Assembly (NCBI GenBank): GCA_030633185.1
Contig: DAOVTG010000001.1
Span: 1-61,868 of the forward strand
DNA: 61,868 bases
Reading direction: 5' to 3'
DNA from: Deltaproteobacteria bacterium
Lineage (GTDB): Bacteria > Desulfobacterota > Anaeroferrophillalia > Anaeroferrophillales > Tharpellaceae
This document shows, in pieces, positions 56,530 to 61,868 of this stretch; position 1 is the first letter of the stretch, and every line of letters begins with the position of its first letter. The notes under the pieces are model-generated. The model saw nothing but the letters and a program-made list of their open reading frames with translations, ran no database searches and had not been told where the DNA came from. A program made the translations under genes and the position numbers.

Positions 56530-59193
56530 ATGACCGGGAATGAGATTCGCAAGCAGTTTTTGGACTATTTTTGCGGGCAGGAACATGCCGAAGTTTCGAG
56601 TTCCAGTCTTGTACCGGCCAACGATCCAACCCTGCTCTTTACCAATGCTGGCATGAATCAGTTTAAGGATACCTTCTTAGGTCTTGAAGAGCGCGGCTAC
56701 AAGCGGGCTACCTCCTCACAGAAATGTGTACGGGCTGGCGGCAAACATAACGATCTTGAGAATGTTGGTCGTACCGCCCGTCACCATACTTTTTTTGAGA
56801 TGTTGGGTAATTTCTCCTTTGGTGACTATTTCAAGCAAGAGGCCATTGAGTATGCCTGGGATTTCCTGACCCGGGTAATGGGGCTTGATGGGGAAAAATT
56901 GTGGGCTACCGTCTTTCTTGATGATGATGAAGCCTATGATCTTTGGAAAACCGTGATCGGGGTACCGGAAGAGCGCATTGTCCGGCTTGGCGAAAAGGAT
57001 AATTTTTGGGCCATGGGCGATACCGGTCCCTGCGGGCCTTGTTCCGAAATTCTTTACGACCAAGGCGAGAGCATGAGTTGCGGCCCCGATTGTGGCATCG
57101 GTATTTGTGATTGTGACCGTTACTTAGAGATCTGGAATCTGGTTTTCATGCAGTTTAATCGGGATGCGGAAGGCACTATGAATCCGCTGCCCAAGCCCAG
57201 TATCGATACTGGTATGGGGCTTGAACGTCTGGCGGCCGTGGTTCAGGGCGTACAGAGCAATTATGATACTGATCTCCTGCGTCAGGTTATTGCGGCCGGT
57301 GAAAAAATCTCCGGTAAAGTCTACGGCGACGATAACGAAAATGATGTCTCTTTGCGGGTTTTGGCCGATCACAGCCGGGCCGCGACCTTCCTGATTGCCG
57401 ACGGTATTCTGCCAGCCAATGAGGGGCGTGGTTATGTTTTGCGCCGGATTATGCGGCGTGCCTCTCGTCACGGCAAGATGCTGGGGCTTAACGATCCTTT
57501 TCTTTATCAATTGGCCGAAGCTGTAGCCCAGGTGATGCAACAACCCTATCCTGAACTTAAAAAGTCATTACCCTTCATCACTAGAGTGATTAAAAGCGAA
57601 GAGGAGCGTTTTGGTGAAACCCTCGACCGTGGACTCAAAATTCTCGATGAAGAAATTGAGAAGTTGAAAGTTTCCGGATCCACCACCCTCTCAGGTGAAT
57701 TTACGTTTAAACTTTATGACACATTTGGTTTTCCCGTCGATTTAACCGCTGATATTATTGAAAAAGATGGTTTTGCAGTTGATCATGAGGGCTTTTCCGA
57801 ACAGATGCAAAAACAACAGGAGCTCTCCCGCAAAGCCTGGAAGGGTTCGGGTGAAGACGCGGTTGATGAGATTTACAAAAGCTTGCTCAATGAAGGACTG
57901 AAAAGTGAGTTCGTCGGCTATGAAAACTTTTCCGCCCAGGGAAAAGTTATCGCCCTGTTGCATGATGGAGGGCCGGTGTCACTGGCCGAAAAAGGTCAAG
58001 AGGTCGAAATTCTTTTCGATCGTACCCCTTTCTATGGTGAGTCCGGTGGCCAGGCCGGTGATCAGGGGCGAGGGCGGATCGAGAGAAATGGTGAAGAGAG
58101 TGCAGCCTTTGAAATTATGACAACGACAAAACCTCTTGATGGTCTGATTCTGCACCGGGCTCGAATTACCGATGGTCAATTGCGGCTTAATGATGAGTGT
58201 CAGCTTGTCGTCGCCCGAGAAGAACGCCTGGCTACAGCCCGACATCACTCGGCAACCCATCTTCTCCAGGCTAAATTGCAAGAAGTTCTCGGAGATCATG
58301 TTAAACAGGCTGGATCTCTGGTGACACCGGAACGTTTACGTTTTGACTTCAGTCATTTTTCTCCGTTAACTGAAGCCGAACTTGAAGAGATTGAACTGCT
58401 CGTCAACCGCGAAATTATGGCCAATCGCTCGGTTTACACTGAAGAGACAAGTATGGATGAAGCCATAAAAAAAGGCGCGATGGCGATCTTTGGCGAAAAA
58501 TATGGCACTAAAGTGCGGATGGTGAGCATGGGGGAGGCCAGCCTTGAACTCTGTGGCGGAACCCACGTTGAATCAACCGGTGACATCGGTTTTTGTAAAA
58601 TTATCAGCGAAACCGGAATCGCCGCCGGGGTGCGCCGCCTTGAAGCTCTGACCGGGGTTGCGGCCTGGAATTACATCAATAAGCGGGGAAAAATCATGCG
58701 GCAGGCGGCAACCTGTCTCAAAGGAATTCCCGAAGAGTTGGTCGAGCGGGTTGAACGTTTGCAGGAGCAAAACAAAGATCAGCAAAAAGAGATCAGCTCG
58801 TTGAAGGAGAAACTGGTTAGTGCCAGCGTTGGTGGGGGAGGTGTCGGTAATGCGGTTCCTATTGAAGAGATCAATGGGGTTCCGGTTTTGGTGAAACGGG
58901 TCGAGTGTGATGATCCTAAAGAGATGCGCCAAGTTATGGATGCTTACAAACAGAAAAACAGCGACGGTATTACCCTTTTAGGGGCGACTCATGCGGGCAA
59001 AGCGATTCTCATTGTTCATGTCGCTAAAGCCTGGCAGAAAAAGTATCCGGCCGGCACCCTGATTCGTGAACTTGCTGCAAAAGTCGGCGGCAAAGGCGGC
59101 GGCAAACCCGAACTCGCCCAAGCCGGCGGCCCGAAGGGCGACCAGCTTGATGCTGCTTTAGAGCATTTGAGAGCTCTGTTACAAACTTCATGA
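56530..59193 (+). CDS. alaS: Alanine--tRNA ligase
   Basis: FTNAGMNQFK, class II core, editing-domain HxxxH/CGGTH motifs, C-terminal DHHA1-like region. The ATG at 56530 follows the tracked TTG at 56527. Confidence 0.95.
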   Translation: MTGNEIRKQFLDYFCGQEHAEVSSSSLVPANDPTLLFTNAGMNQFKDTFLGLEERGYKRATSSQKCVRAGGKHNDLENVGRTARHHTFFEMLGNFSFGDYFKQEAIEYAWDFLTRVMGLDGEKLWATVFLDDDEAYDLWKTVIGVPEERIVRLGEKDNFWAMGDTGPCGPCSEILYDQGESMSCGPDCGIGICDCDRYLEIWNLVFMQFNRDAEGTMNPLPKPSIDTGMGLERLAAVVQGVQSNYDTDLLRQVIAAGEKISGKVYGDDNENDVSLRVLADHSRAATFLIADGILPANEGRGYVLRRIMRRASRHGKMLGLNDPFLYQLAEAVAQVMQQPYPELKKSLPFITRVIKSEEERFGETLDRGLKILDEEIEKLKVSGSTTLSGEFTFKLYDTFGFPVDLTADIIEKDGFAVDHEGFSEQMQKQQELSRKAWKGSGEDAVDEIYKSLLNEGLKSEFVGYENFSAQGKVIALLHDGGPVSLAEKGQEVEILFDRTPFYGESGGQAGDQGRGRIERNGEESAAFEIMTTTKPLDGLILHRARITDGQLRLNDECQLVVAREERLATARHHSATHLLQAKLQEVLGDHVKQAGSLVTPERLRFDFSHFSPLTEAELEEIELLVNREIMANRSVYTEETSMDEAIKKGAMAIFGEKYGTKVRMVSMGEASLELCGGTHVESTGDIGFCKIISETGIAAGVRRLEALTGVAAWNYINKRGKIMRQAATCLKGIPEELVERVERLQEQNKDQQKEISSLKEKLVSASVGGGGVGNAVPIEEINGVPVLVKRVECDDPKEMRQVMDAYKQKNSDGITLLGATHAGKAILIVHVAKAWQKKYPAGTLIRELAAKVGGKGGGKPELAQAGGPKGDQLDAALEHLRALLQTS

Positions 59194-60261
59194 AAAACGG
59201 GGATATGAGCCCAACACTTTCATGTAGAGGCAGATCTCTTTGGTGACTTTGAGCATGGCTGCAACTTTTTCATCCTCACGGTGACCTTCGAAATCGGCAA
59301 TAAAGAAGTAGCTCCATTTTTCGTTACGGGTTGGCCGAGACTCCAGTTTAACCATATTCACACCATATTCAGCCATTGGCGTCAAGACGTGGTGCAGGGC
59401 GCCAGGCAGATGCGGGGTGACAAAAAGAATTGAGGTTTTGTCCTGGCCTGAAGGAGGGCTGTCCTCTTTGCCGAGTACCAGAAAACGAGTTGTGTTGCCG
59501 GGTAAATCTTCAATTTTAGGGGCAATAACCTTGAGATTATAGAGATCAGCTGCGGCGGAACCGGCAATTGCGGCGGTTTGGCCGCGTTGCGTGGCGGCCC
59601 GTCTTGCAGCCTCAGCCGTGCTACCACATTCGGTCAATACGGCACCGGGCAAATGACGTCTGAGCCATTGTCGACATTGAGCAAATGCTTGGGCGTGCGA
59701 GTAGATTGTACGGATACTCTCAAATGGTATATCGCCAGCGGCCAGCAGGTCATGTGAAATCGTCTGATAGCGTTCGGCGCAGATTTTCAGCTCTGAAGTA
59801 AAAAAGAGATCCAGGGTATGGTTAACTGGACCTTCGATGGAGTTTTCCACGGGAACCATACCGTAGTGGCATTGTCCTTTTTCCACCGCCTGAAAAACCT
59901 CGGCAACGTTGGTTTGGGGTACCATTATAGAGCAGCCGCCGAAATGGCCTAAGGCGGCCAAGTGGGTAAAAGAGGCTTCAGGCCCCAAGAAGGCAATTTT
60001 ATGCTGACTCTGGAGTTCGCGGGCGGCGGCCATGATCTCTTTGAAAATCAGGTGCAAAGCGGTTTGCGTTAAAGGTCCATGATTGAGCTTTTTAAGGTGT
60101 TGTAGAACCAGGCTTTCGCGAGCGTTATTGAGCGTAGTAAGGCCCTGGCCCTGTTTTTCCCGGCCAATTTTTCGAGCCAGTTCGAGACGACGATTAATAA
60201 GCTCTAAAACATTGCTGTCCAGATTATCGATCTCTTTGCGTAAAATATCAAGTTCGGACAT
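59188..60261 (-). CDS. pheA: Bifunctional chorismate mutase / prephenate dehydratase (P-protein) with ACT domain
   Basis: N-terminal CM_2 (LRKEIDNLDSNVLELINRR), PDT core (IAFLGPEASFTH...TRF), and ACT with ESRP. Confidence 0.9.
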   Translation of the reverse strand: MSELDILRKEIDNLDSNVLELINRRLELARKIGREKQGQGLTTLNNARESLVLQHLKKLNHGPLTQTALHLIFKEIMAAARELQSQHKIAFLGPEASFTHLAALGHFGGCSIMVPQTNVAEVFQAVEKGQCHYGMVPVENSIEGPVNHTLDLFFTSELKICAERYQTISHDLLAAGDIPFESIRTIYSHAQAFAQCRQWLRRHLPGAVLTECGSTAEAARRAATQRGQTAAIAGSAAADLYNLKVIAPKIEDLPGNTTRFLVLGKEDSPPSGQDKTSILFVTPHLPGALHHVLTPMAEYGVNMVKLESRPTRNEKWSYFFIADFEGHREDEKVAAMLKVTKEICLYMKVLGSYPRFS

Positions 60262-60278: not shown

Positions 60279-60420
60279 ACGGGATGGCTAAGTAAAAATT
60301 TCGATAGGCAAGTTGTTGTGCTTTTTCAGGTGCGAGACCATACAGTTAGTATGTCGAGTGCCTGAAAAAGCACAACAACGCAGAATATCGGAACTTTTTA
60401 CGCCGCCATCAGAGATTGAT
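60279..60420 (-). repeat. Intergenic repeat copy B (aroG 3' end to pheA RBS) with a 19-bp perfect stem
   Basis: Coding-strand GTTGTTGTGCTTTTTCAGG...CCTGAAAAAGCACAACAAC. Homologous to 9920-10058. Confidence 0.7.
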
Positions 60421-61462
60421 TTTTCATCCGTTTGTGGGCACAACGCAGCAATTTCTCGGTGGTTTCCCAGGAGATGCACTCGTCGGTTACTGAAACCCCA
60501 TAGGCCAACTCCTCGATATTTTTACTGCAAGGCTGATTGCCTTCGTAGAGATTACTCTCCAACATCATGCCGACCAGGGCCTGATTACCATCCCGGCGCT
60601 GACCGATAATGTCTTTTAAAACCCGCTCCTGACCTTGATGTTTTTTGCGCGAATTACCATGTGAACAATCGACGACAATAGTCTCTTTAAGCCCCTCGTT
60701 GGCTAATTTTTGACAAGCTTCTTCGATGCTGACGGAATCATAGTTGGGGCGTTGCCCGCCTCGTAAAACCATATGGGTCCAGGGATTTCCCGTGGTTGAA
60801 ACAATGCAGGTTTTACCGTCGGGATCGACGCCGATGAAACTTTGCGGAGCCTGGGCCGCAATCATGGCGTGGATCGCTTTACTTAAACTTCCGTCGGTGC
60901 AGTTTTTGAAGCCGACCGGCATTGAGAGTCCGCTGGCCATTTCACGATGGGTTTGAGATTCGGTGGTGCGCGCGCCGATAGCCGACCAGCAAACCAGTCC
61001 GGCCAGATATTGCGGGGTAATCGGATCGAGCATCTCGGTGGCCGTCGGCATCCCCATCCCGGTTATTTTCATAAGAATCCGTCGAGCCCGGCGCAAGCCT
61101 TCACCCATATCACAGCTGCCGTTCATGTGAGGATCGTTGAGGAGGCCTTTCCAACCGACCGTCGTCCGGGGTTTTTCAAAATAGACCCGCATTACCAGGA
61201 GCATGGTGTCAGCAACTTCAGCTTGTAGTTTTACCAGTCGTTCAGCATATTCTAAGGCTCCTTTTTCATCATGGATCGAACAGGGGCCGACGATCATCAG
61301 TAAACGCTGGTCACGATGAGCCAGAATATCTTCGATTTGACGCCGTCCTTCAATCACGGTTTTTCGGCTGGCCGGGGTCAATGGCAACTCCTTTTTGAAG
61401 GTGTTAGGGTCAATCAATGGTTCGAAACTTTTGATATTAATGTCATGGGTGCTGGTAGTCAT
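60398..61462 (-). CDS. aroG: 3-deoxy-7-phosphoheptulonate (DAHP) synthase, class I-alpha (AroG/F/H type; isozyme specificity not determinable here)
   Basis: LLMIVGPCSIHD, KPRTTVGWKGL, and VDCSHGNS motifs, about 354 aa. AGGAG RBS. Confidence 0.9.
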   Translation of the reverse strand: MTTSTHDINIKSFEPLIDPNTFKKELPLTPASRKTVIEGRRQIEDILAHRDQRLLMIVGPCSIHDEKGALEYAERLVKLQAEVADTMLLVMRVYFEKPRTTVGWKGLLNDPHMNGSCDMGEGLRRARRILMKITGMGMPTATEMLDPITPQYLAGLVCWSAIGARTTESQTHREMASGLSMPVGFKNCTDGSLSKAIHAMIAAQAPQSFIGVDPDGKTCIVSTTGNPWTHMVLRGGQRPNYDSVSIEEACQKLANEGLKETIVVDCSHGNSRKKHQGQERVLKDIIGQRRDGNQALVGMMLESNLYEGNQPCSKNIEELAYGVSVTDECISWETTEKLLRCAHKRMKNQSLMAA

Positions 61463-61483
61463 GGTTAAATCTCCTGTTTAAAT

Positions 61484-61518
61484 AAAAAAAGGGCCGTGAG
61501 GATTGTCCCCCACGGCCC
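61484..61518 (-). terminator. Attenuator/terminator hairpin 2, 21 nt upstream of the aroG ATG
   Basis: Coding strand GGGCCGUG, 12-nt loop, CACGGCCC, then U7. Confidence 0.65.
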
Positions 61519-61525
61519 TTAAAAG

Positions 61526-61558
61526 AAAAAAGCCGGGGGTTGGTTTACCCTCGGCTTT
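61526..61558 (-). terminator. Attenuator/terminator hairpin 1
   Basis: Coding strand AGCCGAGGG, 8-nt loop, CCCCCGGCU (one A/C mismatch), then U6. Confidence 0.55.
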
Positions 61559-61583
61559 ATTAATTTATATGAGTTTAGAACTC

Positions 61584-61664
61584 TTAAATGCCCCAGGCAA
61601 ACCTATCCTTATCTCTGCTAAAATAAAACCAAAAAAAGAGAAGGGCGGAAATGGGGCGGATCAT
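61584..61664 (-). CDS. Candidate aromatic-amino-acid leader peptide (26 aa)
   Basis: ATG at 61664, TAA at 61586-61584: MIRPISALLFFWFYFSRDKDRFAWGI. It has six consecutive aromatic codons, an AGGA 11 nt upstream, and is followed by the two U-tract hairpins and then aroG. Confidence 0.55.
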   Translation of the reverse strand: MIRPISALLFFWFYFSRDKDRFAWGI

Positions 61665-61868
61665 TTAAATCTAATTCCTGATTGATTTATAGTTGGTTGG
61701 CGAGCCTTCACACTATTTGTGTTCGTTAATGGTGGCCTACTAAATCAATTTATTGCTTATGTCAAGCTATATTATCAGGAGAGGCTATAAGCAAAAGCTG
61801 GTTTTTCATTCCTGTTTGTGATATTTCTTAGCAGATTCCAATTCAAAATTTGAAAACTCTATTTCATC

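Follow-up and report, generated by a model that had tools for sequence, protein, structure and literature searches.

The window discussed here, by which we mean the whole stretch of DNA analysed, is 61,868 nt of the Deltaproteobacteria bacterium contig DAOVTG010000001.1, and its minus strand carries two genes of aromatic amino-acid synthesis, aroG and pheA, preceded by a leader in which a short open reading frame (ORF) rich in aromatic codons is followed by two hairpins with U tracts. Comparison with related loci makes it highly probable that this leader is a ribosome-mediated attenuator, reading the supply of charged Phe-, Tyr- and Trp-tRNA. The genes and the first features of the leader are as follows.

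60398-61462, minus strand: aroG, class I DAHP synthase, the first regulated gene (Pfam DAHP_synth_1, PF00793, E = 2.6e-81)
59188-60261, minus strand: pheA, P-protein, the second gene of the operon (Pfam CM_2, PDT and ACT)
61471-61475, minus strand: AGGAG, ribosome-binding site of aroG (from the sequence)
61584-61664, minus strand: leader ORF of 26 codons plus stop, MIRPISALLFFWFYFSRDKDRFAWGI (homologous ORFs of 22-27 codons in 22 loci)
61620-61637, minus strand: regulatory codons UUU UUU UGG UUU UAU UUU (FFWFYF), the proposed stall site (from conservation)
61675-61679, minus strand: AGGAA, Shine-Dalgarno-like motif of the leader ORF, 11 nt upstream of it (from the sequence)
61760-61765, minus strand: TTGACA, putative promoter -35 hexamer, its function suggested by its being kept across loci
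61737-61742, minus strand: TAGTAG, weak -10-like hexamer with conserved TA, 17 nt after the -35 hexamer

Much of this arrangement had been proposed in an earlier note on the same DNA, and its account of the locus holds up well. The Pfam matches bear out its naming of the two genes as DAHP synthase and P-protein; the 26-codon ORF lies on the minus strand at 61664-61584, with its six consecutive aromatic codons at 61637-61620; the two U-tract hairpins that it had placed between the leader stop and aroG, referred to here as terminators T1 and T2, are both present; and the U tract of T2 is separated from the aroG ATG (61462) by exactly 21 nt (61483-61463), with the AGGAG motif inside that gap, just as it had said. 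Its claim of a weak promoter also stands, since TTGACA (61765-61760) and TAGTAG (61742-61737) are there with 17 nt between them, and a TTGACA-N17-TAnnnn arrangement recurs upstream of the leader in 18 of 22 comparable loci (as TTGACT in one of them).

Predicted leader peptides upstream of aroG

The FFWFYF stretch is the sole run of at least five consecutive Phe, Trp or Tyr codons in the six frames of the 61.9-kb window. To place it in a comparative setting, 174 loci were gathered by AroG-based scans of genomes and metagenomes and by look-ups of AroG homologues, and 22 of them are leader loci: nine from close uncultured relatives, eleven from other Desulfobacterota, one from a Dehalococcoidia metagenome-assembled genome (MAG) and one from a contig without assignment. 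In all 22, an ORF of 22–27 codons with an aromatic run, and then a terminator, lies upstream of aroG. The earlier note had named conservation of the ORF and its aromatic run in orthologous aroG leaders as a check on its proposal, and ORF, run and terminator are indeed kept across Desulfobacterota. It had supposed the relatives to be Desulfuromonadales, and this needs correcting: the nearest are uncultured “Deltaproteobacteria” or Desulfobacterales MAGs, of Desulfobacterales type (Desulfococcaceae, Desulfonema) and not demonstrably Desulfuromonadales.

Within the close family, whose AroG proteins are 78–90% identical over the eight loci fetched (a set that does not include the closest homologue, P0001, at 97%), the N-terminus of the leader varies freely among the nine loci and FFWFYFS is invariant. 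More distant Desulfobacterota, with AroG about 59–68% identical, bear equivalent leaders, and these include three cultured species, Desulfococcus multivorans, Desulfonema ishimotonii and Desulfoferrobacter suflitae. Beyond the loci compared here, the AroG search points to more than 100 other protein clusters with 63–69% identity. Examples of the leaders are given below.

L171, close family: MIRPLSALFFFWFYFSRDKDRFARGI
L001, Desulfococcaceae MAG: MGHFFAGGYFWFWYYFYTGLLPGVR
L004, Desulfobacteraceae MAG: MLSQFSGRVFFYFWYYFFGTGLPEAC
L172, Desulfococcus multivorans: MNPYAGSVYYFWFYFYGTARLPGVR
L173, Desulfonema ishimotonii: MTHFFADKFFYFWFYFFYATCLPGVR
L174, Desulfoferrobacter suflitae: leader ending in GRLFGYYYFYYAFRLPEVR

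None of these leader peptides (22–27 aa) had been annotated by gene callers in any locus examined. A motif of the form (A)AGGA, GGAG, AGG or GGG, read by eye, lies 4–16 nt upstream of the leader start in about 20 of the 22 loci, and no clear Shine-Dalgarno motif was seen in the 22 nt upstream of the start in loci L103 and L041. The leader signal can be considered specific, since an upstream ORF with at least four consecutive aromatic codons occurs in only 9 of 160 unselected aroG loci. Eight of these nine are leaders with a confirmed terminator, and the ninth, in L003, is a spurious ORF overlapping the real L003 leader, which carries YYYCYYY.

The simplest sceptical account of the window would hold that the ORF is a chance product of a T-rich spacer, lying beside terminators that simply end the gene before it; the codons of the run are T-rich and the intergenic region around them is rich in AT, and runs of at least six aromatic codons are expected 0.09 times per window in Markov-1 simulations. 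The comparative data effectively refute this account, which we regard as hardly credible: ORF and run are kept in 22 loci with AroG identity down to about 55%, the hairpins described below show structural covariation, and the upstream neighbour, a gene for an AI-2E-family transporter, is divergent in seven of eight close relatives. This orientation rules out T1 and T2 as terminators of an upstream gene and places both inside the 5′ leader of aroG.

The content of the run varies between loci in a way that is itself informative. Locus L003 (2827-2965 and 4124-5308) has a Tyr-only leader, MAHIADKAYRYYYCYYYTCGLSAAP (YYYCYYY), with a single terminator, and downstream a DAHP synthase gene followed by tyrA for chorismate mutase-prephenate dehydrogenase (Pfam CM_2, PDH_N and PDH_C); judging by its codons and genes, L003 represents the same attenuator scaffold with its specificity exchanged in nature. 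Codon content follows the downstream pathway, Tyr-only with tyrA and Phe-dominated with pheA, as expected of a translated sensor.

Several further observations concern the leaders and their operons. In all nine close-family loci the stretch UGG UUU UAU UUU AGC (61617-61631, minus strand) is invariant at the nucleotide level, synonymous sites included, and the flanking codons vary; part of this stretch pairs within the 1:2 hairpin described below. Rare codons were considered as the cause of the invariant UUU and UAU and ruled out, TTT and TAT being common in this genome. Leaders followed by a terminator upstream of aroG were also found in L041, the Dehalococcoidia MAG (about 2757-2880, MRELPANRYFGYYFYRTDCEVVG), and in L103, a GC-rich metagenome contig (about 1195-1330, MSMVAAYYYFYYFYAFDPGGET); these have no obvious RNA sequence in common with the Desulfobacterota element, and either convergence or transfer could account for them. 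The operons themselves differ: the aroG-pheA order of the window becomes aroG-aroB-pheA downstream of the leader in D. multivorans (L172, 2501-5759), and in D. ishimotonii (L173, 2501-5782) aroG is followed by aroB, called as two fragments and possibly frameshifted, and then by a second DAHP_synth_1 gene.

Mutually exclusive hairpins in the leader

Conservation of the ORF and run, the five hairpins and their mutual exclusivity, covariation and energetics were all computed directly. Throughout, it should be borne in mind that the loci share ancestry and that counts based on shuffles are not probabilities. The 238-nt leader (61463-61700, minus strand), whose folding the earlier note had proposed as a check, proves far more stable than its shuffled counterparts (z = -5.2, with 0 of 200 shuffles as good), and its minimum-free-energy fold in the absence of a ribosome consists of a long 1:2 hairpin together with T1. 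The structural elements are listed here in order of transcription.

61590-61657, minus strand: 1:2 hairpin (anti-antiterminator), enclosing the aromatic codons (ribosome-free minimum-free-energy fold)
61590-61603, minus strand: region 2, the 5′ strand of antiterminator AT1, GGUUUGCCUGGGGC, ending 3 nt before the stop codon (folding and alignment)
61542-61555, minus strand: region 3, the T1 5′ arm and loop, which is the 3′ strand of AT1, GCCGAGGGUAAACC (folding and alignment)
61526-61555, minus strand: terminator T1, hairpin GCCGAGGGU/ACCCCCGGC at 61555-61532 and U6 at 61531-61526 (folding and alignment)
61508-61539, minus strand: AT2, the 4:5 hairpin, T1 3′ arm and U tract CCCCCGGCUUUU with AAGGGCCG.GGGG, the A tract and T2 5′ arm (folding and alignment)
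61484-61518, minus strand: terminator T2, hairpin GGGCCGUGGGG/CCUCACGGCCC at 61518-61491 and U7 at 61490-61484 (folding and alignment)

The 1:2 hairpin is built from two helices, one joining GCCCCA (61657-61652) to UGGGGC (61595-61590) and the other joining the pyrimidine run CCCUUCUCUUUUUUUGG (61645-61629) to AGCAGAGAUAAGGAUAGG (61619-61602). Distant loci have an equivalent helix around the aromatic run (CGCAGGCAGAC:GUCUGCCUGCG in L085 is one), and the loci differ from one another in compensatory ways.

To represent a stalled ribosome, only the RNA 3′ of its leading edge was folded, at the point before the T1 3′ arm has been made. (A model that masked only 28 nt was dropped, as helices closed across the ribosome and gave misleading all-T1 results.) Under these conditions AT1 forms in 22 of 22 loci with 7–15 pairs, the window having 12. 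In the 14 loci that have T2, AT1 and T1 lie close in energy (a difference of about -5 to +6 kcal/mol), and in the window AT1 is favoured over T1 by 0.6–2.0 kcal/mol. In the loci that lack T2, T1 has an advantage of about 4 to 12 kcal/mol, and AT1 there would therefore rely on forming first. A ribosome at the stop codon covers region 2, and this moves the balance by 10–17 kcal/mol toward T1 in all loci.

The pairing of region 2 with region 3 also has comparative backing. A MAFFT alignment of 20 loci, made independently of any structural model, shows pairing at AT1 in 90% of cells, compared with 30–47% in slid controls; one pair is C-G in nine loci and U-A in seven, and 13 cells are changed on both sides. 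A UUU-to-UGU change in region 2 of L167 is matched by AAA-to-ACA in its T1 loop. Cognate partners bind more stably than non-cognate ones (-20.2 versus -16.9 kcal/mol, with 0 of 5000 permutations as good), and the AT1 duplex of the window, at -21.4 kcal/mol, stands well apart from its shuffles (-7.5 +/- 2.2 kcal/mol, z = -6.2). The earlier note had suggested a different antiterminator, GCCUGGGG with the T1 3′ arm CCCCCGGC; this was rejected as the main antiterminator, being an interrupted 3+3 bp helix without covariation, whose two central positions are unpaired in 19 of 20 loci, and the conserved partner is instead the T1 5′ arm and loop.

With these folds in hand, the sequence-level features of ribosome-mediated attenuators are all found in the leader, namely a Shine-Dalgarno motif, a leader ORF, a 1:2 hairpin, an antiterminator, a terminator and a stop codon adjoining region 2. 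Together with the conservation of the leader, they support the proposal of the earlier note that the element belongs to this class.

Two other ways of reading the same RNA need to be weighed. In other phyla, aromatic amino-acid genes come under the control of T-boxes or of attenuators that work through proteins, and translation of the leader ORF rests on inference, so one might imagine that what decides between AT1 and T1 is not a ribosome but a tRNA, as in T-boxes, a metabolite, as in riboswitches, or an RNA-binding protein resembling TRAP or PyrR. This seems very unlikely. There are no Rfam matches at gathering threshold in the whole window, and a scan of the leader region at permissive E values gave noise only (best E = 0.08–0.9, far below gathering scores); the best leader match was His_leader, with 19.5 bits against a gathering score of 49 (E = 0.86), and neither T-box nor Phe_leader matched in that scan. 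Filing the element under an Rfam leader, T-box or riboswitch family was rejected on the strength of these noise-level scores. About 70 nt of the leader is ORF, which leaves no room for an aptamer or specifier domain, and the features that are conserved, that is, reading frame, ORF length, Shine-Dalgarno motif, aromatic class (with F, Y and W interchanging) and stop position, are expected only of a translated sensor.

It could also be supposed that the promoter, the structured RNA and the strong terminators, which together resemble a small RNA (sRNA) gene, form an independent sRNA of about 180–250 nt ended by T1 or T2, with an ORF that is incidental or encodes a micropeptide and with aroG transcribed from a promoter of its own. 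Some loci do have 90–137 nt from the last terminator to aroG, which is room for a promoter, and an attenuator-derived RNA can act in trans, as reported for rnTrpL in Sinorhizobium (PMC6614838). We nevertheless consider an independent sRNA very improbable. In the window, L001 and L003 only 21–28 nt separate the last terminator hairpin from the ATG, ribosome-binding site included, so that there is no promoter room. The element always lies directly upstream of a DAHP synthase gene in the same orientation, its codon content tracks the pathway (Tyr-only with tyrA, Phe-rich with pheA), and an sRNA and nothing more would have no use for conserved mutually exclusive antiterminators. Should the terminated leader act in trans, this would come on top of attenuation, and by analogy with rnTrpL the leader RNA released here might do so.

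Two candidate terminators and a possible relay

T1 and T2 differ in strength and in distribution. T1 (-12.7 kcal/mol in the window, with one A.C mismatch) is paired in 92.8% of cells of the 20-locus alignment, with 13 cells changed on both sides. Across loci, T2 (-23.0 kcal/mol in the window) is paired in 94.2% of cells, with 17 changed on both sides. T2 is present in 14 of 22 loci, all three cultured species among them, and is missing or decayed in the other eight. T1 is weaker in loci that have T2, with a mean of -14.3 versus -16.3 kcal/mol (one-sided Mann-Whitney p = 0.03).

Two side observations belong here. In L167 (about 3001-114 to 3001-60) the T2 position holds a degenerate copy, with GGGCCGCGGGAG as its 5′ arm and part of a 3′ arm but lacking a U tract. 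T2 appears to be decaying there; the T1 of this locus has a fully paired, GC-rich stem of 9 bp (-18.5 kcal/mol). On the plus strand of the window, the reverse complement of T1 (61529-61558) is also terminator-like, with a stem and a ATTAATTTAT tail, and it might stop antisense transcription or be an incidental match.

What links the two terminators is AT2. The earlier note had pointed to pairing between a C5 run in the T1 3′ arm and a G5 run next to the T2 5′ arm; that pairing exists, as one segment of a longer hairpin of 12 pairs (-19.1 kcal/mol) in which the T1 3′ arm and U tract pair with the A tract and T2 5′ arm. AT2 can form in 14 of 14 loci with T2, with 9–14 bp and energies of -15 to -23 kcal/mol against -12 to -23 kcal/mol for T2 itself. 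Locus by locus the values for AT2 and T2 are -19.1 and -23.0 kcal/mol in the window, -22.5 and -17.7 in L001, and -23.0 and -20.9 in D. multivorans. AT2 is paired in 93.8% of cells, compared with 34–58% when slid, and it covaries at one pair, which is GC in five loci, AU in four and GU in four.

From these structures we infer translation of the leader ORF, ribosome stalling, termination at the hairpins and a relay from T1 to T2, which would operate in the following way. Transcription would start at the conserved TTGACA-N17-TAGTAG promoter, and the 26-codon leader would be translated while RNA polymerase makes the remaining leader. When aromatic aminoacyl-tRNAs are plentiful, the ribosome would reach the UAA stop codon and cover region 2 (GGUUUGCCUGGGGC); T1 would then fold and transcription would stop at U6. 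Polymerases escaping T1 would reach T2, which would fold as a back-up, being free to do so because the T1 3′ arm is locked in T1. When aromatic aminoacyl-tRNAs are scarce, a ribosome stalled on FFWFYF would open the 1:2 hairpin and expose region 2, which would pair with the T1 5′ arm and loop as AT1 ahead of the synthesis of the T1 3′ arm. Left without a partner, that arm and its U tract would capture the A tract and T2 5′ arm as AT2, blocking T2 and allowing read-through into aroG-pheA. With no translation at all, the 1:2 hairpin would form and both terminators would fold, a state of super-attenuation.

The central idea, that one stall flips a chain of five mutually exclusive hairpins (1:2, 2:3, 3:4 or T1, 4:5, and 5:6 or T2) and so arms or disarms both terminators, is one that we favour with moderate confidence. 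Its prerequisite is found in 14 of 14 loci with T2, where an alternative duplex of the T1 3′ strand and the T2 5′ strand is about as stable as T2.

The alternative that deserves most attention accepts a genuine attenuator at T1 and treats T2 as unrelayed, either a constitutive leaky back-up or a duplication remnant that lowers expression in both states, in which case T2 would have originated by copying of T1 and the 4:5 complementarity would follow from that origin. The 5′ arms of T1 and T2 do have GCCGYGG in common, and T2 has been lost or has decayed with the leader kept in L166, L167, L003, L081 and L082; AT2 covariation is concentrated in one pair, and in the window T2 is favoured over AT2 by about 4 kcal/mol. 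On the other hand, a T2 of this strength (-23 kcal/mol, U7), were it never relieved, would block an aromatic amino-acid operon. AT2 moreover uses the T1 U tract and the A tract 5′ of T2, which lie outside both stems, and does so in 14 of 14 loci; it is isoenergetic with T2 locus by locus; its cognate partners are more stable than non-cognate ones (27–159 of 5000 permutations being as good); and the position that varies is paired within AT2 in 13 of 14 loci, within T1 in only 11 of 14. An unrelayed T2 is accordingly an account that we consider doubtful but worth keeping in view.

A number of points weigh against the attenuator and relay as drawn here, and they should be stated together. The 11-nt spacing of the Shine-Dalgarno motif of the window leader exceeds the optimum, and since TTT and TAT are common codons, stalling would have no rare-codon aid. 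The organisms are mostly MAGs. The AT2 covariation comes mainly from one variable pair, which in the window is a C.U mismatch; permutation lends AT2 modest support (p about 0.005–0.03), from sequences that are related and not independent; and the likeness of the T2 5′ arm to that of T1 means that the AT2 complementarity could partly be a by-product of duplication. Finally, a full-length fold of the window leader with a stalled ribosome favours T1 plus T2 by 8.6 kcal/mol, from which it follows that antitermination would have to be kinetic. Kinetic antitermination is usual for attenuators.

Neighbouring sequences and known attenuators

Outside the element, an 18-nt block, GAAAAACCAGCTTTTGCT, occupies 61790-61807 (minus strand), preceding the -35 hexamer by about 25 nt, and has been kept in the close family (L162 2633-2648, L164 2630-2645, and also L166, L167, L168 and L171); a ATAGCACA-like motif lies another 10 nt or so upstream. 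The block has one copy in the window and occurs only in relatives with a divergent AI-2E-family transporter gene as neighbour, being absent from L169, which has another neighbour. It is left out of the element for this reason, and from its distribution it is probably a promoter or operator of the transporter gene. At the far end of the operon, alaS (plus strand, ending at 59193) and pheA (minus strand, ending at 59188) converge, and their 3′ ends overlap by 6 nt (59188-59193); a terminator-like site was detected for neither of these 3′ ends, and none was seen in the aroG-pheA intergenic stretch.

Leader-peptide attenuation is a textbook mechanism, described mainly in Gammaproteobacteria with scattered cases elsewhere, and its workings in E. 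coli are established knowledge. The element shares with E. coli pheL-pheA and with trpL, hisL, leuL and thrL a short leader with a run of regulatory codons, the 1:2, 2:3 and 3:4 hairpins, an intrinsic terminator before the first gene, and a stop codon that lets the ribosome mask region 2. It differs from the pheL class in having no similarity at the level of sequence or Rfam model, in the phylum of its host (Desulfobacterota), and in the addition of a second terminator and a fifth hairpin, AT2. Phe, Trp and Tyr codons are mixed in its run, where leaders of the E. coli class use one amino acid, and the first regulated gene encodes DAHP synthase, an enzyme that in E. coli is under TyrR/TrpR repression. 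The his leader of Salmonella and E. coli has more than four segments, whose A:B, C:D and E:F pairings alternate with B:C and D:E and so relay one ribosome position; in that leader only the last hairpin is known to terminate, whereas here the 3:4 and 5:6 hairpins both bear U tracts and the relay would gate two sites.

As to the genes, pheA is regulated by the pheL leader in E. coli, as it would be here (PMC11802643). By analogy, the closest functional precedent is the aroR-aroF attenuator of Corynebacterium glutamicum, in which, according to a published summary of Neshat et al. 2014, a Phe-Tyr-Phe leader precedes a DAHP synthase operon and Phe limitation stalls the ribosome and raises read-through (PMC11802643). 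The likeness drawn here is one of function; the host belongs to Actinobacteria, the DAHP synthase gene is a different one, the run has three codons against 6–10 here, and that summary mentions no second terminator or relay (PMC11802643). Attenuators have also been predicted before aroF-tyrA in Vibrio, in entries of the Merino database cited elsewhere (PMC1173090, Table 7); these are analogous to L003, with its YYYCYYY leader before DAHP synthase and tyrA, but lie in Gammaproteobacteria and are listed as predictions only. No description of tandem terminators in the Vibrio aroF-tyrA attenuators was found in the literature searched.

Tandem arrangements as such are known. The Salmonella mgtCBR leader is reported as a case of tandem attenuation with two short ORFs whose translation is anticipated to affect stem-loop formation (PMC3641672), some rimP leaders have tandem terminators (PMC2965389), and synthetic tandem pT181 attenuators place more than one attenuation site in series (bioRxiv 10.1101/003335). 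Compared with mgtCBR and pT181, the present element appears to control both terminators from a single leader ORF, through shared strands. Each unit of the synthetic pT181 series reportedly needs its own input. Neither an aromatic attenuator from Desulfobacterota or deltaproteobacteria nor a single leader ORF gating two terminators was found in a literature search that left most subscription-journal papers outside its reach.

Overall, the element is most probably a conserved leader-peptide attenuator of aroG in Desulfobacterota that senses all three aromatic amino acids and probably relays through two terminators, classic in mechanism and, in the literature searched, unreported in lineage and layout. 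It would add Desulfobacterota, and apparently Dehalococcoidia, to the groups that use leader-peptide attenuation, here at the committed step of aromatic amino-acid synthesis, where a mixed run of Phe, Trp and Tyr codons fits an enzyme of the common pathway, a view supported by the Tyr-only leader before the tyrA operon. As three cultured hosts carry the element, the model is directly testable. If the relay is true, termination efficiencies in the OFF state would multiply at little cost in the ON state, in a design conserved across Desulfobacterota aroG operons. The coupling of T2 to T1 through shared strands suggests an evolved way to cut the leakiness of an attenuator without a second sensor, and such a relay would be of interest both for the design of RNA switches and for how decisions made during transcription propagate along a nascent RNA.

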